Notes: generated by a model not told the origin, from the sequence alone. 50,319 nucleotides of DNA from Candidatus Krumholzibacteriia bacterium (GCA_036478295.1 JAZGDW010000297.1:1-50319), one strand, 5' to 3'. Positions 1,998 through 21,119 are shown, counted from the first letter of the stretch. Program-made: numbers and translations.

Positions 1998-4757
1998 CTA
2001 TCCTCGAATCAGTTGCAGCAACTCCGACAAGCCGTCCGCGCCGGCGCGGCCCACACTCACCCGCAGGATGCGGCGGCCGCGTTCGTTAAGCGCCTGCGCG
2101 TCTCCCATCGCCTGCGCTCGCATCAGATCACCGAACGTGTAGTCGGCCTCCGGGACCTCCATACCCTGTGGCACGTCGTCCACAACCTGCAGGAACAACC
2201 CCGTGTTCGGGCCGCCCTTGTGCAGCTGCCCCGTCGAGTGCAAAAAGCGGGGGCCGTACGCCAGGGTGGTCGCCAGGCGGGTGCGGTTGCGCAGCGCGGT
2301 TCGAAATTCACCCAATGCCGAAGTCGTCGCGCCGCCGGGCGGCAGGTAGGCCTGGATGGCAACGTAATCACCAGGGCGGGCCTCACCCAGCCATCGTTCG
2401 AGCGTAGCACCGGCGTCGCCCCCCTTATCCACATAAATCGTCTCGATGCCATCATCCCAACCCGAAGCGCCGCGGCTCTCTAGTTCCGCCATCTTGCGCC
2501 GGGCCAGGTCCTTGGCCAGCTGCACGTCCGGTTGATTGAACGGGTGAATACCGAGAACTGACCCCACGGCGGCCGTGGCCATTTCCCAACGAAAGAATTC
2601 CTGTCCGATGAGCATGGGGTCCTTGATCTGGACTCGTGCGACGGGATGCCCCGCGAATTCCAGCCGGCCGAGCGCGTCCTCGCACTCGGTGGATTCACCC
2701 TGCGTGGAGAGGTAGACGAAGAAACGGTCTTCTCCATAGACGTCATCCCGGCTCAGTGCCTCGCCCACCACCGGCACCACACCCTGGCCCCCCTTGCCTG
2801 TGCTCTCGGCAACCAGCTGCTCGATCCATGCGGGCAGCGCGCGGAGCGACTGTGACGTGACGATGGTCAGCTTGTCGCGGCCGGCGAGCGCCAGCTCACC
2901 GATCGCCGCACCGAGTGCCAGCGCGGGATTCTCTGTCACCGGCACCGCCGCGCCCGTGTTCTCCATCATGGCCCAGGCGCCGTCGAGGATGCGGTGCACG
3001 TCGAGCCCGGTTACCGCGGCAGGAACCAGACCGAAGACGCTCAGCGCCGAATAACGCCCGCCCACCTCCGTCGGCGCATGGAAGACGTGACGAAACCCCC
3101 GCTCGGCGGCCAGTGCTTCCAGTGGTGTGCCGGGGTCGGTCACGGCGACGAAGTGGCGGCCGGGCTCGCCGCTCGACGGAGCGATCTCATTCCAGAAATA
3201 TTTAAAAAAGGAAAGCGTCTCGGTGGTGGTACCGGATTTACTGGAGATGATGAACAGCGTTTTCGAGGGGTCGATCCGCTCGCGCACGGCAGCCACGGCA
3301 CCCGGGTGGGTGCTGTCCAGCACGATCAGCTCCGGGCGGTTTTTTTTGTGTCCGAAGGTCTCGTGGTACACCTCCGGCGCCAGGCTCGAGCCACCCATAC
3401 CGCACAGCACCGCGTGGGTAAAACCGTCCTTGCACACCGCCCTGGCGAAGTCCTGGATGGCATCGATTTGATCGTGCATGTCCCGGGGCAGGCTGAGCCA
3501 ACCCAGGCGGTCGGTCAGCTCCGGCGCCGGCGAAGATGACCACAGGGTGGGGTCTTTCTGCCACAGGCGGGCGGCGTAGTCGTCGTGCTGCCATTGTTCG
3601 AGACGCGCGCCGACGGCTTCCTCGCCGTCACCCAGATTCAGGTACTGGTGTTGGGATCGGCTTGAGAGAATCGAGCTCCTTTTTTTTTTGAGAGCTTCGA
3701 GAAGCTCTTCAAAAGATTTCGTAAAGGAGGCGACCCCGTCCACTTGTAACTTCTCCGTAATGGCGTCCAGGTCGATGCCGAGTTGTGCGAGCTTGTGGAT
3801 CTGCGCCTCCGCTTCTTCGACGTTCTGTGCGAGCGTCGGCTCGACCTTGCCGTGATCCCGAAAAGCGCTCAGCGTCGCGGGTGGCAGTGTGTTCACCGTG
3901 TCCGGGCCGATGAGTTCCTCGACGTAGAGCACATCCCTGTAATCGGGGTTCTTGGTCGATGTGCTCGCCCACAGCGGTCTCTGCACGCGGGCGCCCTTTG
4001 CTTTGAGCGCGGCGAACGCGTCGCCGTAAAAAATTTCTTCGAAGCGCTTGTACGCGAGCTTGGCGTTGGCGACGGCGATCTTGCCGAGAAGCGCTTTGGC
4101 CTCGGGCGAACCGTTCGCTTCGAGCGCCTTGTCCACCACGCCGTCGATACGACTGACAAAGAAGGATGCCACCGACGCGATCGTCTGCGGGTTCTTACAG
4201 CGCTCGATACCGCGGATGTACGCCTGTGCGATGTCTTCGTAATGCTTGAGAGAAAACATCAACGTGCAGTTGATGTTGATACCGTCGGCGATCAACGCTT
4301 CGAAAGCGGGCACGCCGGCTGGCGTCGCCGGCACCTTGATCATCACGTTGGGACGATCGACCGTCTGCCACAAACGTTTTGCTTCGGCGACGGTCTTTTC
4401 GGTGTCGTTCGCCAGCCGCGGGGATACCTCCAGGCTCACGTAACCATCCGCGCCCTGCGACTCCTCGTACAGCGGGCGCAAGACGTCGGTGGCCATCTGA
4501 ATGTCCTCGATGGCCAGCGTTTCATACAGCGTCTTGATGTCGACGTGCGGGTCACGGTCGAGGGTCTTGCGCAGGCTTTCGTCGTAGTCGACACTTCCCG
4601 CGATCGCCTTTTCGAAAATGGTCGGATTGCTGGTCATGCCGCGCAGCCCGTCTTCTTCGATCAGACGGTTCAGCTCACCGCCGGTCATTAGTGTGCGGCG
4701 AATGTAGTCGAGCCAGATCGACTGCGAGTGTTCGGCCAGTTTTCTCAAGGGGTTCAT
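1998..4757 (-). CDS. Bifunctional transaldolase / glucose-6-phosphate isomerase
   Basis: N-terminal half: SIWLD, TSNPTIF, NVMIKVPAT, ASFFVSRID, RPLWASTSTK (transaldolase). C-terminal half: GMGGSSL, SKSGTTTET, VGGRYSALS, HPFNQPDV (PGI). Confidence 0.95.
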   Translation of the reverse strand: MNPLRKLAEHSQSIWLDYIRRTLMTGGELNRLIEEDGLRGMTSNPTIFEKAIAGSVDYDESLRKTLDRDPHVDIKTLYETLAIEDIQMATDVLRPLYEESQGADGYVSLEVSPRLANDTEKTVAEAKRLWQTVDRPNVMIKVPATPAGVPAFEALIADGININCTLMFSLKHYEDIAQAYIRGIERCKNPQTIASVASFFVSRIDGVVDKALEANGSPEAKALLGKIAVANAKLAYKRFEEIFYGDAFAALKAKGARVQRPLWASTSTKNPDYRDVLYVEELIGPDTVNTLPPATLSAFRDHGKVEPTLAQNVEEAEAQIHKLAQLGIDLDAITEKLQVDGVASFTKSFEELLEALKKKRSSILSSRSQHQYLNLGDGEEAVGARLEQWQHDDYAARLWQKDPTLWSSSPAPELTDRLGWLSLPRDMHDQIDAIQDFARAVCKDGFTHAVLCGMGGSSLAPEVYHETFGHKKNRPELIVLDSTHPGAVAAVRERIDPSKTLFIISSKSGTTTETLSFFKYFWNEIAPSSGEPGRHFVAVTDPGTPLEALAAERGFRHVFHAPTEVGGRYSALSVFGLVPAAVTGLDVHRILDGAWAMMENTGAAVPVTENPALALGAAIGELALAGRDKLTIVTSQSLRALPAWIEQLVAESTGKGGQGVVPVVGEALSRDDVYGEDRFFVYLSTQGESTECEDALGRLEFAGHPVARVQIKDPMLIGQEFFRWEMATAAVGSVLGIHPFNQPDVQLAKDLARRKMAELESRGASGWDDGIETIYVDKGGDAGATLERWLGEARPGDYVAIQAYLPPGGATTSALGEFRTALRNRTRLATTLAYGPRFLHSTGQLHKGGPNTGLFLQVVDDVPQGMEVPEADYTFGDLMRAQAMGDAQALNERGRRILRVSVGRAGADGLSELLQLIRG

Positions 4758-4801
4758 CGACGTTTCCTTTCCTTCACTGAAATTGCTTCACCACCGCACG
4801 A

Positions 4802-6805
4802 TCAGCGTTGCCGTCCCAATAGTGTAACGGTTTCCTCCACGACATGGTCCACGCTGAACCCGAGTTTTTCCATCACCACACCCCCCGGTGCGGACGCACC
4901 GAAGCGGTCGATGCCGATTATAGCACCATTGTCGCCCACATACTCACGCCACCCGAACGGACTGCCGGCCTCCACGGCGACCTTCGGCACCCCGGCCGTC
5001 AGGACGCCCTCCCGGTAGCCGGCGGGCTGCTCGTCGAAAAGCTCCCACGAAGGCATCGACACCGCCCGCGCCTTTATCCCACGCGCCTCCAGCACATCAC
5101 GGGCCGCCATAACGAGCGCCACCTCCGAGCCGCTGGCGATGAGGATCACTTCGGGTTCTCCGCCCGCCGCATCGGCGAGCGTGTAGGCACCACGCGGGAC
5201 CCCTTGCGCGACGGGGTAACGCTCACTGTCGAGAACGGGCAGGCCCTGGCGGCTGAGTGCCAGCACGACCGGCCCCCGCTGCTCGATGGCCACTCGCCAG
5301 GCGACCGCCGTCTCGTTGGCGTCGGCCGGACGCAGCACCGTCAGGCCCGGAATGGCACGCAGGCTCGCCAGGTGCTCGACCGGCTGGTGGGTCGGTCCGT
5401 CCTCGCCAAGCCCAACGCTGTCGTGCGTGAAGACGAAGATCGACGGCACGTTCATGAGAGCCGCCAGCCGGATGGCCGGGCGCATATAATCCGAAAAGAT
5501 CAGAAAGGTCGCACCGTACGGCTGTACCCCGCCGTGCAGCGCCATGCCGTTTACCACTCCGGCCATCGCGTGCTCGCGCACGCCGAAGTGAAAGTTGCGC
5601 CCTTCGGGCCGCTCGCCCGAGAACGCGTCGAAATCCTTTAGATAGGTCTTGTTCGAGGGGGCAAGGTCGGCCGACCCACCGATCAACGCGGGCAGTCGCC
5701 GGGCGAGGGCGTTCAACACCTGACCCGACGCCGCGCGTGTCGCAATCTTCTTCTCGCCGGGTGCGAACACCGGAATGTCAGCGTCCCAGTCCTCGGGCAG
5801 CTTGCCACGGATAATCCGCTCGAGCTTCGCCGCGTTCTTCGAGCGGCTCGTGCGGTATTTCGCAAACCGCGCCTCCCAGGCGTCTTCCAGCTCACGGCCG
5901 CGCGTTACCGCCCCCTGGAAATGCTCGCTCGCCTCTTGCGGCATATGAAACGCCGGTTCCTTCGGCCAGCCGAGGGTGTCCCTGGTCGCTGCCATCGCCT
6001 CGGCACCCAGCGCCTCGCCGTGAACGGAGGCCGTGTCCTGTTTTGGACTGCCGAACCCGATGTGGGTCCGCACGCAAATGATGGACGGGCGTGCCGCCTC
6101 CGCCTTCGCCGCCTCGATGGTGGCCTCGATGGCGGCGAGGTCGTTGCCGTCCTCCACGGCCTGCACGTGCCAGCCGTACGCCTCGAAACGCTTGCCCACG
6201 TCTTCGCTGAACGCGAGATCCGTGCTGCCGTCAATAGTAATGTGGTTATCGTCGTAGAGATACACCAGCTTGCCGAGCTTCATGTGTGCCGCCAGCGACG
6301 CCGCTTCGGACGCGATGCCCTCCATCAGATCGCCGTCGGAAACGATGGCGTAGGTGTAATGATCGATTAGCGGCTCTGTTCCTGCCTCGTTGAAACTTGC
6401 CGCCAGGTAGGCCTCGGCAATCGCCATCCCCACGCCCATGGCGAAGCCCTGGCCGAGGGGCCCGGTGGTCGCCTCCACGCCCGGAGTCAGTCCATACTCG
6501 GGATGCCCCGGTGTCTTGCTTTCCCACTGGCGAAAGTTGCGGAGCTCATCGATGGGCAGCGCATATCCGTACGAATGGAGCAGCGCGTAGAGAAGCGCGG
6601 ACCCGTGTCCCGCGGAGAGGAGAAAGCGGTCACGATTGAACCAGTTTGGATTCTTGGGATTGTGGTGCAGAAAACGATCCCAGATGACATACGCCATCGG
6701 CGCGGCGCCCAGCGGCAGTCCGGGATGTCCCGACTGCGCCTTTTCCACCGCGTCCACCGCCAGGAAACGGAGCGTATTGATGCAAAGCTGATCCTTCGGG
6801 TTCAT
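4802..6805 (-). CDS. tkt: Transketolase
   Basis: [60 protein letters not shown]. Confidence 0.98.
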
Positions 6806-7031: not shown

Positions 7032-7886
7032 CTAGGGTCCTCCGTCTCCCGTCTCGATCGCCACACCGACGACGTTTCCCCATTCGGCGTAGGATCCGTC
7101 GTAGTTGCGGACGTTGGGATAGCCCAGCAGATACTTGAGGACGAACCAGCTGTGGCTGCCGCGTTCCCCGACACGGGAATAGGTAATCACTTCCTTGTCC
7201 GGGGTCACGTCTTTGGATTGGTAGATCTCCTGCAACTTGTCGGCAGTCTTGAACGTGCCGTCGTCGTTGCAGGTAAGGGCCCACGGAATGCATTTGGCCC
7301 CGGGAATGTGTCCGGTTTTTTGAAACCGGTCATGCGGGGACGAATTGCCTGAGAGCCCGCCCGTGTATTCATCGTGTGAACGCGCGTCGACCAGCGCATG
7401 CGAGCGGCTCTTCACCGCAAATTTCACCTGGGAGAGAAACGCCCGCACGTCCTGGTTGAGGGCCATGGACTTGTAGGCCACCGGCTTCGGCGTGACCGGG
7501 TCTTTGACCAGCGGCCGGTTTTCGGCCAGCCATTTCTTGCGGCCGCCGTTCAAGATGCGCACTTCCCGGTGCCCGTAGACCTTGAGCTGCCAGAGCGCCA
7601 GCGTGGCGAACCAGTTGTTGTTGCCACCGTACAGTACGACCGTACTGTTATTGTCGATACCGCTCTTGCCGAGCAGTTTTTCGAAGTCCGCCAGCCCCAG
7701 TATATCCCGACGCCGCCGGTCGACCATCTGCTTGTGCCAGCTCCAGCCCACGGCGCCCGGTATGTGCCCCTTATCGTAGGCCGCAGTGTCCGCATCCACC
7801 TCGACCACCTCGAGGTTGGGCTCGCCGTGGTGCTCCGCCAACCACTCGGTGGACACCAGCACGCGGGGGTCCGCATATTCAATCAT
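7032..7886 (-). CDS. Tandem-domain rhodanese/sulfurtransferase (SseA/CysA-like), with Ser at the catalytic Cys position
   Basis: LVSTEWL, GHIPGA twice, LNGGRKKW, YDGSYAEW; active-site loop reads YSRVGER rather than the usual YCRIGER. Confidence 0.9.
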   Translation of the reverse strand: MIEYADPRVLVSTEWLAEHHGEPNLEVVEVDADTAAYDKGHIPGAVGWSWHKQMVDRRRRDILGLADFEKLLGKSGIDNNSTVVLYGGNNNWFATLALWQLKVYGHREVRILNGGRKKWLAENRPLVKDPVTPKPVAYKSMALNQDVRAFLSQVKFAVKSRSHALVDARSHDEYTGGLSGNSSPHDRFQKTGHIPGAKCIPWALTCNDDGTFKTADKLQEIYQSKDVTPDKEVITYSRVGERGSHSWFVLKYLLGYPNVRNYDGSYAEWGNVVGVAIETGDGGP

Positions 7887-8177: not shown

Positions 8178-8375
8178 ATACCAATGATCTTCGGGACGCG
8201 GGATGTTAGATCGAAGAAGCGTACTAGAAACAGGACGAGTCATTTCTAATACCTTTGCACGCCAAGCATGCTCACACCGAAAGCCGCTTTCACCTTGCAC
8301 CTATAATTTAGATAAATAATGAAAAGTTGACAACCTTTTTGGTAACATCTTTATCGACAAACCCCGGAGGTGTTC

Positions 8376-10073
8376 GTGAAAAGATTACTGTTCTTTGTAA
8401 CGTGTGCTAGTTTCTTCGCTTTCGCCGCGTACTGTCAAGACCGGATTACTGGAAAATCTTTTGCCAGCCGCTCGGAGGTGATTGCTCCGCACGGGATGGC
8501 GGCCACGAGCCAGCCCCTGGCCACGCAGATCGCGCTGGACATTCTAAGGAGCGGCGGCACAGCGGTTGACGCAGCCATCGCAGCCAACGCGGCGCTTGGC
8601 CTCATGGAGCCTACCGGAAACGGCATCGGCGGCGACCTCTTCGCTATCGTGTGGGATGCGAAGACCCGCAAGCTTTACGGCCTGAACGCCAGCGGGCGGT
8701 CACCCGCCTCACTCACCCTGGATTATTTCAAGAGCCACGGGCATGAAAAGATCCCCAGTCACGGCCCGCTGCCGGTCACGGTACCGGGCTGCGTGGACGG
8801 CTGGTTCGAGCTGCACGGGCGGTTCGGCAAACTCAAGATGACGAAAATCCTCGCACCGGCGATCCGCTATGCACGGGAGGGCTTTCCCGTGAGCGAGCTC
8901 ATCGCCTATTACTGGGGTCGCAGCGTGCCCATCCTCGAGAAATATGACGGTTTCAAGGACACGTTCATGCCCGGCGGCCGCGCGCCCCGCAAGGGCGAGA
9001 TCTTCAAGAATCCCGGGCTCGCCGGGACACTCGAGCTGCTCGCAAAGAAGGGCCGTGACGTCTTTTACAAGGGCGAGATCGCCCGTACCATCGATGCGTT
9101 CATGGCCCGAAACGGCGGGTTCCTGTCGTACGAGGACCTGGCCGCACACCATTCGGAATGGGTGGAACCGGTGTCAATTAACTACCGGGGCTACGACGTG
9201 TGGGAGCTCCCGCCGAACGGGCAGGGCATCGCCGCCCTCCAGATGCTGAACATCCTCGAAGGCTACGACCTCGCGTCGATGGGCTTCGGGAGCCCCTCGT
9301 ACATCCACACCTTCGTCGAGGCCAAAAAACTCGCCTTCGAAGACCGCGCCCGCTTCTATGCGGACCCCGCGTTCAATCGCATTCCCGTCGCGGAGCTCAT
9401 CTCCAAGGAGTACAGCGACCGGCGGCGGCGGCTGATCGACCCCGGGCGGGCGGCGAGGCGCTACGACGCCGGCAACCCGTCGCTTCGCGCGGGCGATACC
9501 ATCTACCTGACCGTCGCCGATAAGGACGGCAGCATGGTATCCCTCATCCAGAGCAATTACCGCGGCATGGGAACCGGGCTGTCCCCCGACGGGCTGGGTT
9601 TTATCCTGCAGGACAGGGGCGAGCTGTTCGACCTGGCCGAGGGCCGCTTCAACACCTATGCGCCCAAGAAACGCCCCTTTCACACCATTATTCCGGCGTT
9701 CATCACCAAGGACGACCAGCCGTTTATGAGCTTCGGCGTCATGGGAGGCGCCATGCAGCCGCAGGGACACGCGCAGATCGTGGTCAACATGATCGACTTT
9801 GGAATGAATCTCCAGGAGGCGGGGGACGCGCCGCGCATTCGCCACTCCGGTTCCTCCCAGCCCACCGGCGAAGTGATGAGCGACGGGGGCACCGTGTACC
9901 TCGAAACGGGAATCCCCTACGACACGATCCGTAAGCTCCGGAGCATGGGACACCGTGTGAGTGGCAGCGTCGGCGGGTACGGCGGTTACCAGGCCATCAT
10001 GTACGACGCCGGCGCCGGCGTCTACTACGGTGCCTCAGAATCTCGCAAGGACGGGCAGGCGGCGGGGTACTGA
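8376..10073 (+). CDS. ggt: Gamma-glutamyltransferase, exported
   Basis: Signal peptide; GGTAVDAAIA, GIGGDLF, LPPNGQG, nucleophile Thr in GDTIYLTVAD, KRPFHTIIP, GVMGGAMQPQG; GGAGG RBS at 8366-8370 favours GTG 8376. Confidence 0.95.
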   Translation: MKRLLFFVTCASFFAFAAYCQDRITGKSFASRSEVIAPHGMAATSQPLATQIALDILRSGGTAVDAAIAANAALGLMEPTGNGIGGDLFAIVWDAKTRKLYGLNASGRSPASLTLDYFKSHGHEKIPSHGPLPVTVPGCVDGWFELHGRFGKLKMTKILAPAIRYAREGFPVSELIAYYWGRSVPILEKYDGFKDTFMPGGRAPRKGEIFKNPGLAGTLELLAKKGRDVFYKGEIARTIDAFMARNGGFLSYEDLAAHHSEWVEPVSINYRGYDVWELPPNGQGIAALQMLNILEGYDLASMGFGSPSYIHTFVEAKKLAFEDRARFYADPAFNRIPVAELISKEYSDRRRRLIDPGRAARRYDAGNPSLRAGDTIYLTVADKDGSMVSLIQSNYRGMGTGLSPDGLGFILQDRGELFDLAEGRFNTYAPKKRPFHTIIPAFITKDDQPFMSFGVMGGAMQPQGHAQIVVNMIDFGMNLQEAGDAPRIRHSGSSQPTGEVMSDGGTVYLETGIPYDTIRKLRSMGHRVSGSVGGYGGYQAIMYDAGAGVYYGASESRKDGQAAGY

Positions 10074-10130
10074 CCTGGGCTACGGCGGGTGATAGCGTCG
10101 GCGCGACAGGATGGGCGTTCTCATGCTCGG

Positions 10131-10370
10131 CTAGCCCAGCCCCAGCAGCGCTTCGAGCTTCTTGCGATCGAAGCCGATCACCAGTTCGCCGTCAATGAGC
10201 GTTGCCGGCGTGGAATACACGCCCAACTGTTCAAGCTCTTTCAATGCCGACTCGTCCTCGGAGATGTTCCGATCCGTAAACTCGATCTCTTTCTCAGAAA
10301 GCCACGCTTTCTCCGCGGTGCAAAATTGTCAGCCGGGTTGCGAGTACACAATTACCTTGTGCTCACTCAT
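10131..10370 (-). CDS. Glutaredoxin/NrdH-like protein with in-frame UGA at the first Cys of the redox motif (UQFC); probable selenoprotein, 79 aa
   Basis: Reading through TGA (10329-10331) gives MSEHKVIVYSQPG-U-QFCTAEKAWLSEKEIEFTDRNISEDESALKELEQLGVYSTPATLIDGELVIGFDRKKLEALLGLG*, a complete Grx fold with the cis-Pro TP and IGFD motifs. Confidence 0.88.
10301..10321 (-). promoter_or_regulatory. Candidate bacterial SECIS hairpin
   Basis: Just 3' of the UGA: CAC(C)GC-GGAGAAA-GCGUG stem-loop whose loop starts with G about 15 nt after the UGA. Confidence 0.55.
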
Positions 10371-10416
10371 GATTCGCCCTTTTGCCACCTTCGCTTGTCC
10401 AATACAGGCCGACATC

Positions 10417-10797
10417 TTATTCTGGCCTGATACAACAGCCCTCATGGTCGAGCACGCCTTCGTTGGGAATGGTGCCCTCCAAACGCCCGAGGTAGAAACC
10501 GGGATTCTTCCGGAACACGTCATGGCAGTACGGGCAGCGGCAGAAGTACATTTCCTCTTCAGCAATCTTCAATTTCACTGCGTGGTCTTTCGGTTTCTCA
10601 GCCAGGCAGGTTGGACATACAATCAAATCGTTCGATTCTTGAAGGTACTTCTCGGGATCGGTGCCGAATACGTCCATGCATCCATCACAACAGAAGTGGT
10701 GTTCTTCACCGCCGTGGCTGTGGACAACTGACTTGTCTTTGCTGATCCCGAGCCTTACCAGGGAACAGCCGCAGGTAGGACAGATAGGTGTTTCCAT
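10417..10797 (-). CDS. Tandem YHS/TRASH-like Cys-rich metal-binding protein
   Basis: CPTCGC...HFCCDGC...F..DPEKY and CPTC...YFCRCPYC...F..NP; vicinal CC near the C-terminus; AAGGAAG RBS before ATG 10797. Confidence 0.75.
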   Translation of the reverse strand: METPICPTCGCSLVRLGISKDKSVVHSHGGEEHHFCCDGCMDVFGTDPEKYLQESNDLIVCPTCLAEKPKDHAVKLKIAEEEMYFCRCPYCHDVFRKNPGFYLGRLEGTIPNEGVLDHEGCCIRPE

Positions 10798-10921
10798 TTG
10801 GTCACTTCCTTTTCTATGCGCCGGTTCCGCCACCGCTCCAGATCACAGATGATACCTTTGCCAACGGTGGGAACGGAAACGAAGGTCGAAGAATGCAGCA
10901 AACGCTTCGACTTGCCTGAGC

Positions 10922-11440
10922 CTAGAACTTGAGATATACCGTGGTTGCTCTCCTGTGCTGCAACATTTCCGCCAAAGTAATCGGCTCAACAAAGCTTAGA
11001 ATGTTTTCCCTCCCTTTGACGCTCTTTTCCACTTCCGTCAAAGCATTCCAAAAGCCATTGGTCGTAATTCGTGCGCCTTCCTCTTGTAGTTGCTGGAGAT
11101 ATTCCTGGTAATTCGCAGGAAGCGCGGCACGGTCACCGCCGAAGGTTTCTAGCAACAGATCGTTTATTCGTTCCGGCAGGGGGTAGAGCCCGAGATCGGT
11201 CTTGCCCGGCTCCCACTGCTTGATGCCCCATGTGGCTTCCTGGTCGAAGAATATTTCTACTTTGTCACCGCTACGCAGCGCCTGACGGGAGGCATTGAAG
11301 GCTACACACACGGGCCCGTCATCTTCCTTGAAGTTCGCCGTCAAATGAATAAAGACGGATTCCGCAGCGAAGGATGCCCCTGCCGAAGTCAGCAACAAGA
11401 ACGCTGCCACAAAGGCTATTAGAACCCCACGTCTTACCAT
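10922..11440 (-). CDS. Exported DsrE-like protein
   Basis: Signal peptide (ASFA/A); VFIHLT...PVCVAF.A...G.KVEIFFDQEA...L...GARI pattern resembles the DsrE/DsrF fold. Confidence 0.55.
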   Translation of the reverse strand: MVRRGVLIAFVAAFLLLTSAGASFAAESVFIHLTANFKEDDGPVCVAFNASRQALRSGDKVEIFFDQEATWGIKQWEPGKTDLGLYPLPERINDLLLETFGGDRAALPANYQEYLQQLQEEGARITTNGFWNALTEVEKSVKGRENILSFVEPITLAEMLQHRRATTVYLKF

Positions 11441-11530
11441 TCTCCCATCTCTCCTCTCTCTTGAATCTGTGACGCGACATAACAACTTGCGAAACTGCTT
11501 AGGATCGGATGTACCAGTCAGTTAGAGTAT

Positions 11531-11557: not shown

Positions 11558-11764
11558 TAGACGAATGGGCCTCAAAAAAAGATTGGAACCTTGCACCTAC
11601 GTTCAGGGCTTATGCTAGGTGTAGAGGCCATGACGGCCAGCGTCCGGAGCGCCTGTTGGGCTATCGAGCAGTTCACGGCGTACTTGCACGGGGTGGTTTT
11701 TGAAGATATCTTTCTCGGGTTGGCAAGAAGCCCCGATTTGTTTGCGGGATGGAAAGGAATCGCA

Positions 11765-12301
11765 ATGAAAAGCAAAACAGTGGTCGCGGTGGCAACCTTG
11801 CTCGCTGCCTCTTTCGCCATGGTTTCGACGGCCGTGGCCCAGATCTCAACGGTCACGGTGCGCGTGGACGGGCTCGCGTGTCCTTTCTGCGCCTACAGCC
11901 TCGAGAAGCACATCAAAGCGATTGACGGTACGAAGGACCCGGTCATTAATATCGAACAAGGTATCGTTACCCTGACACCGGTCGGCGACAAGACCGTCGA
12001 CTTCGATGCGGTGCGCGAGGCGGTGAAGCAAGCCGGTTTCACTCCGCGCGAGATAGTTGTCGAAGGTGTCGGCCGCATGGAGACCATTGGCGGACGGGCC
12101 ACCCTCATTGCTGAGGACGGCAGGGAGTTGTTCGTGCTGGCCGCGAACGATGTGCTCGCGGGCCTGGAGGAGGGGCGGAGGGAAGTGGTCACCTTCAGAG
12201 GTACGGTGGCTCCGCGGCGCAAGGACGATGACCGATCAACGCTGAGAACGCTGACCCTGCTTTCGGCGACGCCGGCCGCGAAAGGCGAGGTCAAAAAGTG
12301 A
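11765..12301 (+). CDS. Exported heavy-metal-associated (HMA, MerP/CopZ-like) domain protein
   Basis: Signal peptide, then VRVDGLACPFCAYSLEK...AVKQAGF; AAGGA RBS before ATG 11765. Confidence 0.85.
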   Translation: MKSKTVVAVATLLAASFAMVSTAVAQISTVTVRVDGLACPFCAYSLEKHIKAIDGTKDPVINIEQGIVTLTPVGDKTVDFDAVREAVKQAGFTPREIVVEGVGRMETIGGRATLIAEDGRELFVLAANDVLAGLEEGRREVVTFRGTVAPRRKDDDRSTLRTLTLLSATPAAKGEVKK

Positions 12302-18068: not shown

Positions 18069-21000
18069 TTGAAGAACCGATCGGCCGTGCGAAAACATTC
18101 CTTTACAAGAGCGCTCATCATCGCCACAACGGCGGTGTTCCTCCCCGGTCCACCTGGCGCGACGCCACCGGCCGACGAGCAAGACCAACTGCTCCAGGGA
18201 CTCCGTAACAAGATCGTCGAACTCCGGAGCGGTGGCAATTTTGCCGCCGCGGTCACCCTGGCGGAGGAGGTGGCGTCCACCCTGCAGTCCGAACCCACGG
18301 CACGGCTCGACCAGATGGTCGACGCCGAGTGGCTTCTCCGCACCACACGGATGCTCGCGGCACTCCCCGACTCTTCGCAGGCAAAGATGGTCCTGGTGGA
18401 GGCATGGAAACGAGAGTATCGCGGTTTGCTCGACCAAAGGGCGTACGAGCGGGCGGAGGGCATCATCGCGCGAGTGATCGTGGCGCAGAAGGACATACTC
18501 GGCACGGTGCATCCGGAAACGGCTGGAACACTGGTCGAGTTGGCCCGGGTTCACATGCAGCAGTTGCAGTACGCCTCCGCTGATTCACTCTTCTATGAGG
18601 GACTCAGCATCCAGAAGAGCACGCTGGGCGAGATCCATGTCGATGTTGCTTCAACGTTAAGCTCGCGCGCCCAGCTTTTCGCCGGTATGAAAAGATTCTC
18701 CGCCGCAGATTCGTTGTCCCGGCAAGCCCTGGTCATCCGCGTCAAAGTTCTCGGCGACGACGACCCCGAGGTGGCGAGGAGCCTGCAGGATTACGCTGCG
18801 GTCCGGATTCGTCTTCAGGATCCCGTGGCCGCCGAGGTTTTTTTGCGCAAGGCGCAAGACATTCTTCGCGACCGGTATGGCGAGAGCGCCCCCGCCGTCG
18901 TGAGACAGATGCAGAATCTAGCGGACCTGCTGGCAGCGCACTGCGATCACGCGGCTGCCGCGCGGCTGCACGAGAAGACGCTGGAGATACAGCTCCAAAA
19001 GTACGGGGCGAACCATCTTCACGTGGCCCTCCTGCGCAAGGATCTGGCGAAGTCCCTCGCCGCCCTCGGCGACTACAAAACATCCGAGGTGATGTATCGC
19101 GAGGCCCTCGACGTTCTCTACAAACGTCTGGATCCGAACCACGAGATTGTGGCGCAGGTCCTGAACGACTTGGGTATGGTGCTTCTGCGCATGGGCAATA
19201 TCGGGGAGGCGGTGGGCCAGTTCGACCGGGCAGTGGCAATCTGCAGGCACGTCCACGGCCCGGGCGGCATTGCAGAGGCGGCGGTGCTGATCAGCTACGG
19301 CACCCTGTTCCAGGAGACCCGGGATTACGCGAAGGCGAGGGAGTATTTCTCACAGGCCACAGAGATCTACCGGGAACGCATGGGAGAAACGAGTCCTCTC
19401 TTCGCCGGTGCGCTCTTTCAGATGGCACGCGCGTTGACGGGCCAGCACGAATACGGCCAGGCGCGGCTGCTCCTGATCGAAGCGTGCCGCATTCTGGAGA
19501 ACAACCGCCGGCGCCTGCGCAACTGCCGTTGTTCGATGGACCCGCCGTACGCGAGGGTGACCCCGTACCGGCTGCTGGCCTTCAACGAGCTACAGATGAA
19601 CAACGCGTCGGCCGCCTTTGACGCGTTGGAGAGGGATTACGCGGACTCGCTGGTTACGCGCTTCGACACCCGCTGGTTCCGGCGGCTGAATGCCGCCGAA
19701 GCCAGGCAGGAACGCTACGTGCAAGAGACCGTGGTGCGCCTCGAGCAACTCGTGGCCAATCGCTTCGTGGACGCCAACGCCCCCCGAAAGGATACGGACC
19801 GGGAGTCGATGCGTGCGCAGCTCGCACGTGCGCAGCAGTCGTGGGACATCCTGCAGGAACGCCTTCGCGCACGGTACCCCGCCGACGAAGGGTACGCCTT
19901 CGGACTCCGTGACATCCAATCGAGCCTGCAAGCGGGGGCAGGGTTGGTAGGATGGATGGATGTCGCAGAAACTCGCTACGTTTATCTGGTACCGCCGTAC
20001 GGAGACGTGGTTTGGGAGGAGCTGGACCCTCCGGGCGATGATTCGCTGTATACGCGTTTCAAATCGATGCTCGTGGACCCGCGGTCGGACGATGCCGAAC
20101 TTGGGCGGCTGGCCGCTGAAGTATACCGGCTCCGTCTGGGTCCTCTCGAGCCGTACCTGCAACGGATGACCACGCTCTATGTGGTTCCCTCCGGACCCAT
20201 GGTCGGGATCCCGGTGGAAATCCTGCCCGTTGACGGCCGGCCGATCGGCTCCGGCAGGACAGTGTGTTACACACCGTCAGCGTCGTTTTTTCGCTGGCTG
20301 CGCGCACGGCCGCGGAGCACCGTGCCAGCGTCGATGCTGGCGATCGGCGACCCGCCGTTCAATGACGAGCAGGCCCGCGACATGTATCTGGGCGATCACG
20401 GTCCGGGTGCCGACGCCGGCCTGTCTGGCCCGGAAAGAGAGGAACTGTTCGCGGCGGTGGTGGAGGGTAGGCCGGCGGCCGCCGAGGGACTGCCCCGCCT
20501 CACCGGAACCCGCCTAGAAATAGAGAGTTTCGCCAACATGTTCGCCCCGAACACCGTTCTCCTCGGACTCGACGCGAGCGAGGCGCGGATCGAGACCATG
20601 ACCCGCACGCTGTCTGATTTTGGCTTTGTCCACCTGGCCACGTACGCCATTACAGATGACGTGCGCGGCGAGCGTTCGTCGCTGGTGCTGTCGCAGTCCG
20701 ACGGTGCCGACGTCCTGGACAGCATCGTCCGCGGGCGGCGCCTGGTGGACGGCAGGTTGACCGTGGAGGAAATCCTCCGTGATTGGCGGCTGGAGGCCGA
20801 AGTGGTTACGCTGAGTGCTTGCCAGAACCATGGCACGCGGCTCGGCAGCGGCTTCGGTTTTGCCTACGTTTTCTTGCGCGCCGGGGCGCGCAGCGTCGTG
20901 TTCAACCGGTGGTACGTTGCCGACACACCGACGCGCATCCTCATGAAGCGTTTCTACCACAACCTGGCCGAGCGGCGCCTGGATAAGACACGGGCGCTGG

Positions 21001-21119
21001 ATGACGCCAAGGCCTGGCTGAGGGATTTCACGACGGAGAGCGGCGAACACCCCTACACCCACCCCGCCTACTGGGCCAGCTTCGCCCTGGTCGGCGACCC
21101 CTACTGGGCAACCTACTGA
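18069..21119 (+). CDS. Exported TPR-repeat plus CHAT (caspase-like) domain protein; Tyr at the catalytic His position
   Basis: Hydrophobic N-terminus; many LG..HP..A..L..LA TPRs; CHAT motifs VVPSGPM..IP.E.L, LPRL.GT..E, HLATYA, VTLSAC, AGARSVV..RW.V.D, HPAYWASF. Confidence 0.88.
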   Translation: MKNRSAVRKHSFTRALIIATTAVFLPGPPGATPPADEQDQLLQGLRNKIVELRSGGNFAAAVTLAEEVASTLQSEPTARLDQMVDAEWLLRTTRMLAALPDSSQAKMVLVEAWKREYRGLLDQRAYERAEGIIARVIVAQKDILGTVHPETAGTLVELARVHMQQLQYASADSLFYEGLSIQKSTLGEIHVDVASTLSSRAQLFAGMKRFSAADSLSRQALVIRVKVLGDDDPEVARSLQDYAAVRIRLQDPVAAEVFLRKAQDILRDRYGESAPAVVRQMQNLADLLAAHCDHAAAARLHEKTLEIQLQKYGANHLHVALLRKDLAKSLAALGDYKTSEVMYREALDVLYKRLDPNHEIVAQVLNDLGMVLLRMGNIGEAVGQFDRAVAICRHVHGPGGIAEAAVLISYGTLFQETRDYAKAREYFSQATEIYRERMGETSPLFAGALFQMARALTGQHEYGQARLLLIEACRILENNRRRLRNCRCSMDPPYARVTPYRLLAFNELQMNNASAAFDALERDYADSLVTRFDTRWFRRLNAAEARQERYVQETVVRLEQLVANRFVDANAPRKDTDRESMRAQLARAQQSWDILQERLRARYPADEGYAFGLRDIQSSLQAGAGLVGWMDVAETRYVYLVPPYGDVVWEELDPPGDDSLYTRFKSMLVDPRSDDAELGRLAAEVYRLRLGPLEPYLQRMTTLYVVPSGPMVGIPVEILPVDGRPIGSGRTVCYTPSASFFRWLRARPRSTVPASMLAIGDPPFNDEQARDMYLGDHGPGADAGLSGPEREELFAAVVEGRPAAAEGLPRLTGTRLEIESFANMFAPNTVLLGLDASEARIETMTRTLSDFGFVHLATYAITDDVRGERSSLVLSQSDGADVLDSIVRGRRLVDGRLTVEEILRDWRLEAEVVTLSACQNHGTRLGSGFGFAYVFLRAGARSVVFNRWYVADTPTRILMKRFYHNLAERRLDKTRALDDAKAWLRDFTTESGEHPYTHPAYWASFALVGDPYWATY

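Follow-up and report, generated by a model that had tools for sequence, protein, structure and literature searches.

The minus-strand frame at 10131–10370 of the window (the whole 50,319-nt stretch of Candidatus Krumholzibacteriia DNA that was analysed) very probably, at about 93% by our own estimate, encodes a 79-residue glutaredoxin-like thiol/selenol-disulfide oxidoreductase, with selenocysteine (Sec) as the attacking residue and a hairpin that directs decoding of the UGA codon. Comparison with homologous loci supports it as a genuine selenoprotein gene and a further member of the established family of Sec-containing glutaredoxins. The features of the gene are the following.

10131–10370, minus strand: putative Sec-glutaredoxin-like gene, 79 codons plus TAG (translation with TGA as U, PF00462, AlphaFold2 and Foldseek).
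10368–10370, minus strand: start codon ATG; the aligned Met begins close homologues too.
10329–10331, minus strand: UGA codon 14, at the nucleophilic position of the UxxC motif (translation; TGA or Cys codons in homologues; U/C column invariant in alignment A4).
10320–10322, minus strand: Cys17, resolving cysteine of UxxC (translation; column at least 90% conserved in A4).
10296–10312, minus strand: predicted SECIS hairpin, a 7-bp stem AGAAAGC/GCUUUCU with the apical loop GUG at 10305–10303 (folding and covariation), encoding E20–S25 (EKAWLS).
10206–10208, minus strand: Pro55 of S-T-P, the conserved (cis-)proline of the thioredoxin fold (invariant A4 column, directly before strand 56–59); the cis conformation is presumed.
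10131–10133, minus strand: true stop TAG (translation).

When TGA is translated as U, the frame from the ATG at 10370 to the TAG at 10131 gives 79 residues. The codons run in the order MSEHKVIVYSQPG, TGA (10331–10329), QFC, 62 more sense codons and TAG (10133–10131), and the gene end reads GLG-TAG. Codon 14 is the only in-frame TGA, and an AAGGG was seen by eye 7 nt upstream of the ATG. ORF calling with table 11 splits the frame in two: one piece (10329–10565), opened by an upstream TTG, stops at the TGA, and the other is a 37-aa piece from the TTG at 10244, the first available start. The earlier note on this DNA had described an in-frame TGA at the nucleophilic Cys position (SQPG-U-QFC), 65 codons from there to a TAG, an intact glutaredoxin fold and a frame broken up by the ORF caller; the position and the codon count (which includes QFC with Cys17) proved exact, the two pieces were found, and the fold is borne out below.

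The Pfam Glutaredoxin family (PF00462) matches residues 6–64, across the TGA, with 48.4 bits (cut-off 22.9) and an E-value of 1.1e-12. The solved glutaredoxin 7c10 was aligned over residues 5–78 (E 9e-18), with the first Cys of its CxxC falling on the TGA. An AlphaFold2 model was computed from the alignment A4 (81 rows), with the TGA read as Cys. This model (mean pLDDT 95.8) is a minimal glutaredoxin of the order beta-alpha-beta-alpha-beta-beta-alpha, with strands at 6–10, 32–35, 56–59 and 62–65 and helices at 15–26, 40–48 and 69–76, and residue 14 stands at the N-terminus of helix 1. A4 shows no variation at U/C14, P55, G66 and F67 and very little at C17. The top match of Foldseek was again 7c10 (TM 0.91/0.95, rmsd 0.7 Å, 47% identity over 74 columns). 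None of the specific NCBIfam glutaredoxin subfamily models, Grx3 included, was passed by the protein: it scored 62.1 bits against 88.55 for YruB (TIGR02196), 46.6 against 85.75 for NrdH (TIGR02194) and 47.4 against 66 for UXX-star (NF041212), and it is therefore filed under the Pfam glutaredoxins and the Sec-glutaredoxin group only. The name of the UXX-star model presumably refers to a U-x-x directly before the stop, whereas the Sec predicted here occupies the N-terminal position of the CxxC.

The identity of codon 14 was compared in homologues by scanning one genome per species. Among the best 80 of 119 genome loci, which were kept, the aligned codon is TGA in 53 and Cys in 27, so that both of the forms looked for among homologues exist. 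A metagenome scan gave 33 loci, none above 71% identity, of which 28 cover the site: 19 carry TGA and 9 carry Cys. One metagenome locus (L127:1501–1731, 71% identity) keeps the TGA of the Sec codon and has an extra TAG in place of the Trp codon (EKA*LS) within the SECIS stem; this reflects either damage to the copy or a mistake in the assembly.

The hairpin AGAAAGC-GUG-GCUUUCU begins 16 nt past the UGA and has a predicted energy of -7.1 kcal/mol. Taken alone it does not exceed chance: for a 66-nt excerpt z was 0.49 and 140 of 200 shuffled sequences folded equally well (27 of 200 for a 25-nt excerpt), and the minimum-energy fold shifts with a slightly different excerpt. Folding of the single sequence is thus not significant, and the argument for a SECIS therefore rests on comparison. 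In a gap-free alignment of the 48 nt from the TGA onward in 54 TGA genes, an 8-pair helix is paired in 85.5% of the cells. Six of the eight pairs change on both sides (for example GAGAAAGC/GCUUUCUC, GUGAAAGA/UCUUUCAC, GCGAAAGA/UCUUUCGC, UGUCAGA/UCUGAC and CUAAGGA/UCCUUAG). When the 3' partner was slid by 1–3 columns as a control, pairing fell to 31–55%. The same columns in 27 Cys genes are 51% paired, with no in-register peak; in Cys forms that branch within Sec clades the hairpin persists as a decaying remnant (-3.8 kcal/mol in L019), and the distant Cys form L045 has no fold. The metagenome loci add a compensated stem variant, ACGGAGGA-GUU-CCUCCGU. We regard this comparative picture as decisive for the predicted SECIS, since the register of the hairpin and its covariation are found only in the TGA genes. 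The SECIS-like hairpin with a G-led loop that had been proposed is thus present, with GUG as its loop and with comparative support. An apical loop that is small and includes a guanosine is the form described for bacterial SECIS elements in PMC1088965. A search of 9900–10700 against Rfam on both strands, at a permissive threshold, gave no family for the hairpin and only a chance match to SAM-Chlorobi (E 0.3, 9900–9966). The stem is encoded by residues 20–25 of helix 1, and the constraints on protein and RNA therefore overlap there.

A maximum-likelihood tree was built from 81 rows and 71 columns with the redox position masked, and many of its forks are unresolved. In it, a single clade of 55 rows unites 52 of the 54 Sec rows; this clade spans Chloroflexota, Fidelibacterota, Thermodesulfobacteriota, Fervidibacterota, Acidobacteriota and Bacillota. 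Isolated Cys rows occur in this clade (L019, L040, L043), as do Sec rows in the Cys clade (L066, L084); the U/C label requires 6 changes on the tree against about 23 when shuffled. A 27-row clade with good support (25 Sec, 2 Cys) includes the window protein, whose closest neighbours are sequences of Anaerolineae and Fidelibacterota. The nearest sequences are from phyla other than its own. Among the relatives of its own genome a homologue was found in 1 of 40, a Cys form of the same class with 38% identity; none of the 12 from its family and none of the 23 from its order gave one. The distribution of the gene is therefore patchy here; the pattern fits lateral acquisition, and the gene may be a recent arrival.

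The closest characterised relative is cGrx1 of Clostridium oremlandii, described in PMC7642778 as natively a selenoprotein; for crystallography its catalytic Sec was exchanged for Cys (7c10). The two share the minimal glutaredoxin fold, the 47% identity noted above and, by prediction for the window protein, Sec at the first position of the motif. They differ in the motif itself (U-Q-F-C in the window protein, U-P-H-C, of the type U-P-x-C, in cGrx1) and in the host, an uncultured diderm as against a clostridium. The nearest named transketolases, at 70–81% identity, are those of Krumholzibacteria, a hint at the taxon from one gene. In PMC7642778 cGrx1 is proposed to reduce a selenoprotein MsrA and then to be reduced by glutathione, whereas the genome from which the window comes (3.5 Mb in 316 contigs, 91% complete) has two MsrA genes, neither with an in-frame stop. 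In the same 91%-complete assembly gshA (PF04262) was not found, and the GSH-S_ATP domain (glutathione-synthetase-type ATP-grasp) was seen only in a contig-terminal stretch of 45 residues; a thioredoxin reductase is present (404 bits). With the wider Sec-glutaredoxin family the window protein shares the Pfam family (PF00462), the UxxC motif and a SECIS within the coding sequence. Members of this family are reported in Geobacter, Alkaliphilus and Moorella (PMC1794560) and as ten sequences from the Sargasso Sea (PMC1088965), and a Sec-containing glutaredoxin is listed as verified in a table of a 2026 review (PMC13188914). The earlier note had called the gene a hidden selenoprotein, which overstates the case, as Sec-containing glutaredoxins are already known and experimentally verified according to these sources (PMC13188914, PMC1088965, PMC7642778). 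YruB and NrdH gave the best NCBIfam matches and have the same size and fold, but the window protein stays below both cut-offs; no nrdE or nrdF domain was present among the scanned ORFs of the window, and no ribonucleotide reductase genes lie nearby. The Cys homologues of Patescibacteria have thioredoxin-reductase-like, rubrerythrin and peroxiredoxin genes as neighbours, as expected for a YruB/NrdH-type group. The UXX-star proteins share a glutaredoxin-like fold and the use of selenium with the window protein, and metal-related roles are suspected for them in PMC13188914.

From the established bacterial mechanism, SelB with Sec-tRNA(Sec) would bind the GUG-loop hairpin within the coding sequence and deliver Sec at the UGA in place of termination. 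Sec would then be the attacking residue of U14-Q-F-C17 at the N-terminus of helix 1. The selenolate would attack a disulfide or sulfenic acid of the substrate, Cys17 would resolve the mixed selenenylsulfide, and the oxidised protein would be re-reduced by glutathione, as in the characterised relative, or by thioredoxin reductase. Candidate substrates are a methionine sulfoxide reductase, as for Grx1 of C. oremlandii, or the metal-binding proteins, rich in Cys, whose genes adjoin this one. The two neighbours that bear on the latter are these.

10417–10833, minus strand: Cys-rich 138-aa protein with YHS domains, possible operon partner (PF04945, E 3.4e-10, two stretches), 46 nt upstream of the Sec-glutaredoxin gene.
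11591–12301, plus strand: gene in divergent orientation whose product carries an HMA (MerP/CopZ-like) metal-binding domain (PF00403, E 2.9e-7); the NCBIfam models MerP and CopZ match below their cut-offs.

Several other genes of the window were recorded. Upstream of the YHS gene lies a 187-aa ORF (10922–11485, minus strand) with a signal-like hydrophobic stretch at its N-terminus; no Pfam family was matched, even with the threshold relaxed to E 5, and the sole match was a weak one to ExtJ (E 0.016), which belongs to an operon for selenite/tellurite reduction. A gamma-glutamyltranspeptidase gene (8370–10073, plus strand) is convergent with the Sec-glutaredoxin gene, with 57 nt between the stops. 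A two-domain rhodanese (7032–7886, minus strand) lies 2.2 kb from it, and rhodanese genes also flank L022 and L037. A 1016-aa protein with TPR repeats and a C-terminal CHAT (caspase-like) domain (18069–21119, plus strand) is unrelated to the Sec-glutaredoxin.

The neighbourhoods of the best 80 of 119 loci were scanned with Pfam (187 ORFs flanking the 53 Sec loci and 92 ORFs beside the 27 Cys loci). E1-E2 ATPases adjoin eight Sec loci (L016, L025, L027, L031, L033, L034, L035, L036), with the C-terminal part of one at L084, and FTR1 permeases are among the ORFs flanking Sec loci. Cation-efflux genes adjoin L058, L089 and L093, and the same protein is encoded about 1.2 kb upstream in L082; HMA and MerT-thioredoxin genes adjoin L080, and a multicopper oxidase adjoins L037. 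The pyridine-nucleotide oxidoreductases adjoining L032 and L071 exceed the MerA equivalog cut-off, and at L071 the order is ArsR, Sec-glutaredoxin and MerA on one strand. In four Fervidibacter loci (L044, L048, L054, L069, at about 3250–5020) a full-length DsbD with DsbD_N, transmembrane and thioredoxin domains follows the Sec-glutaredoxin gene by about 30 nt on the same strand. No metal transporter was found by Pfam among the 92 ORFs beside the Cys loci. By tblastn, with queries taken from Sec loci, a P1B ATPase lies within 3 kb of 12 of the 53 Sec loci and of 0 of the 27 Cys loci among the best 80 of 119; the Cys controls are mostly small-genome Patescibacteria, and also Dehalococcoidia, and taxonomy therefore confounds this Sec/Cys contrast. 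Six of the ATPases were tested against NCBIfam: five exceed the copper model TIGR01511 and one the Cd/Zn model.

Two further arrangements were seen at these loci. Five Anaerolineae loci (L025, L030, L033, L034, L035) form a conserved block of P1B ATPase, FTR1 iron permease and Sec-glutaredoxin, with a cytochrome c gene within about 1 kb downstream of the latter in L025, L033 and L034. In three Desulfobacterota loci (L050:2057–2560, L051:1926–2429, L060:1776–2429) an ORF lies on the same strand about 0.5 kb upstream of the Sec-glutaredoxin start; its match is confined to the C-terminal part (about 203–345 of 347) of PF07355, glycine/sarcosine/betaine reductase selenoprotein B, and a 122-aa ORF lies between the two in L051 and L060. 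This partial match may reflect a second selenoprotein gene split at a TGA.

One question is whether the protein is a dedicated partner of proteins that handle soft metals (Cu/Hg) rather than a general redox housekeeper. Such a role is compatible with Sec decoding; it would consist in keeping Cys sites of the CxxC or TRASH type reduced, or in binding metal through Sec-x-x-Cys. The YHS and HMA genes of the window speak for it, as do the copper-type P1B ATPases, MerA, cation-efflux, HMA and MerT-thioredoxin genes beside Sec loci and the lack of metal transporters beside Cys loci. A 2026 paper (PMC13707694) also reports that genes for Cys-type NrdH or glutaredoxin occur in the vicinity of Cu(I)-ATPases in alphaproteobacteria. 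On the other hand, beside the best 80 of 119 homologous loci the YHS gene recurs at none, the 187-aa ORF at none and the HMA gene at one (the rhodanese gene also at one); the neighbours of most Sec loci are unrelated, the related loci are not independent, and cGrx1 acts on MsrA and not on metals in the account of PMC7642778. Among the extracts returned by a full-text literature search, none linked Sec-glutaredoxins to metal ATPases. We consider a soft-metal partnership of the window protein unlikely, at roughly the level of a lead worth following. The wider proposal, that the Sec clade serves specifically as an accessory to systems that export and detoxify soft metals (copper P1B-ATPases, MerA, cation-diffusion facilitators, HMA/YHS/MerT), seems marginally less likely again. 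If it held, the selenolate-thiolate pair would return oxidised cysteine sites that bind metal to the reduced state or pass on Cu(I)/Hg(II), and the client in the window would be the adjacent protein with two YHS domains.

The assignment of Sec to the UGA itself was weighed against the decoding apparatus of the organism. A tRNA-Sec is encoded in the genome (68.1 bits against an Rfam cut-off of 47; called SeC(tca) by ARAGORN), together with SelA (418 bits) and a SelB wing-3 domain within a 645-aa ORF. The contig ends within SelD, so that only an N-terminal fragment covering model positions 1–79 was found; it scores 80 bits, short of the 125 set for the full-length model. This fragment (contig C118:2–229, minus strand, locus L011) has one in-frame TGA and reads AACAG-U-ASKF; with the TGA in the motif AGUASK, SelD would therefore be a second selenoprotein gene of this genome. 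Matches to the formate dehydrogenase alpha models in this genome have no in-frame TGA. TGA is the stop codon of 16 of the 35 window ORFs that are backed by Pfam, among them the neighbouring gamma-glutamyltranspeptidase gene; TAG closes 11 and TAA 8. TGA is therefore a normal stop here and there is no genome-wide recoding. Both statements of the earlier note on this subject thus stand: that other genes end in TGA, which excludes recoding, and that the Sec machinery is encoded elsewhere, with SelD as the contig-end fragment.

These results make it highly improbable that the UGA is read as Trp, Gly or Cys, whether through a genome-wide change of the code or through SECIS-independent near-cognate read-through. 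What favours such a reading is a full-length entry of the public protein collection, P0002, which has W at the Sec position; this entry is nearly identical to the translation of L018:3001–3237, and the W is probably the gene caller's choice of code because the DNA of L018 reads TGA.

The integrity of the gene was examined in reads and by codon comparison. Eighteen public runs carry the stretch, each with a share of at most 0.15, and no RNA run was among those listed. For reads over 9800–10900, X1, X2 and X4 leave most of the gene without cover, and X3 gives one 25.7-kb contig over 10133–10897 with 45 differences. Among the differences listed, seven lie inside the gene and none at 10329–10331; 21 of the 45 are unseen, and X3 is therefore no proof that this relative keeps the TGA. 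Sequencing error is excluded because many independent homologues carry the TGA. Over the 60 codons past the TGA, comparison with the 7 closest loci gave pN of 0.15–0.28 against pS of 0.69–0.94, with dN/dS of 0.06–0.12 where computable, indicating strong purifying selection on this part of the gene; the relaxation downstream of the TGA that would have spoken against a selenoprotein was not seen in any of the seven comparisons. That the gene is a pseudogene, a Cys-type glutaredoxin with a TGC or TGT changed to TGA by nonsense mutation or by an error of sequencing or assembly, is the least probable reading of all: the TGA is one base change away from either codon, standard ORF calling yields only fragments and broken copies such as L127 exist, but the TGA recurs at independent loci of several phyla, the codons behind it are conserved and a covarying hairpin in a fixed register follows it only in the TGA forms.

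Entries of the public protein collection also favour the Sec reading. A search of it gave 44 relatives, of which 16 have only 61–65 aa and start with M-EKAWLS or MA-EKAWLS just past the motif; a shared stop-like codon would yield such entries from gene callers. Judged from these entries and from the W of P0002, the predicted Sec-glutaredoxin family is systematically mis-annotated.

Taken together, the result indicates that the organism decodes Sec. Since a Sec-glutaredoxin family was already known, the find is sound but ordinary. It offers a clean example of a doubly constrained stretch, in which the predicted SECIS stem coincides with helix residues 20–25 (EKAWLS or VKEFLS variants). Public protein sets lack this gene and dozens of its relatives or contain them only in shortened form, and pipelines without awareness of Sec therefore under-count selenoproteins in uncultured lineages. 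The recurrence of Sec forms beside copper and mercury genes is the only part that could change thinking, as a lead and not a result; if the connection were true, metal chemistry, and not general antioxidant defence, would drive the use of selenium in this family.
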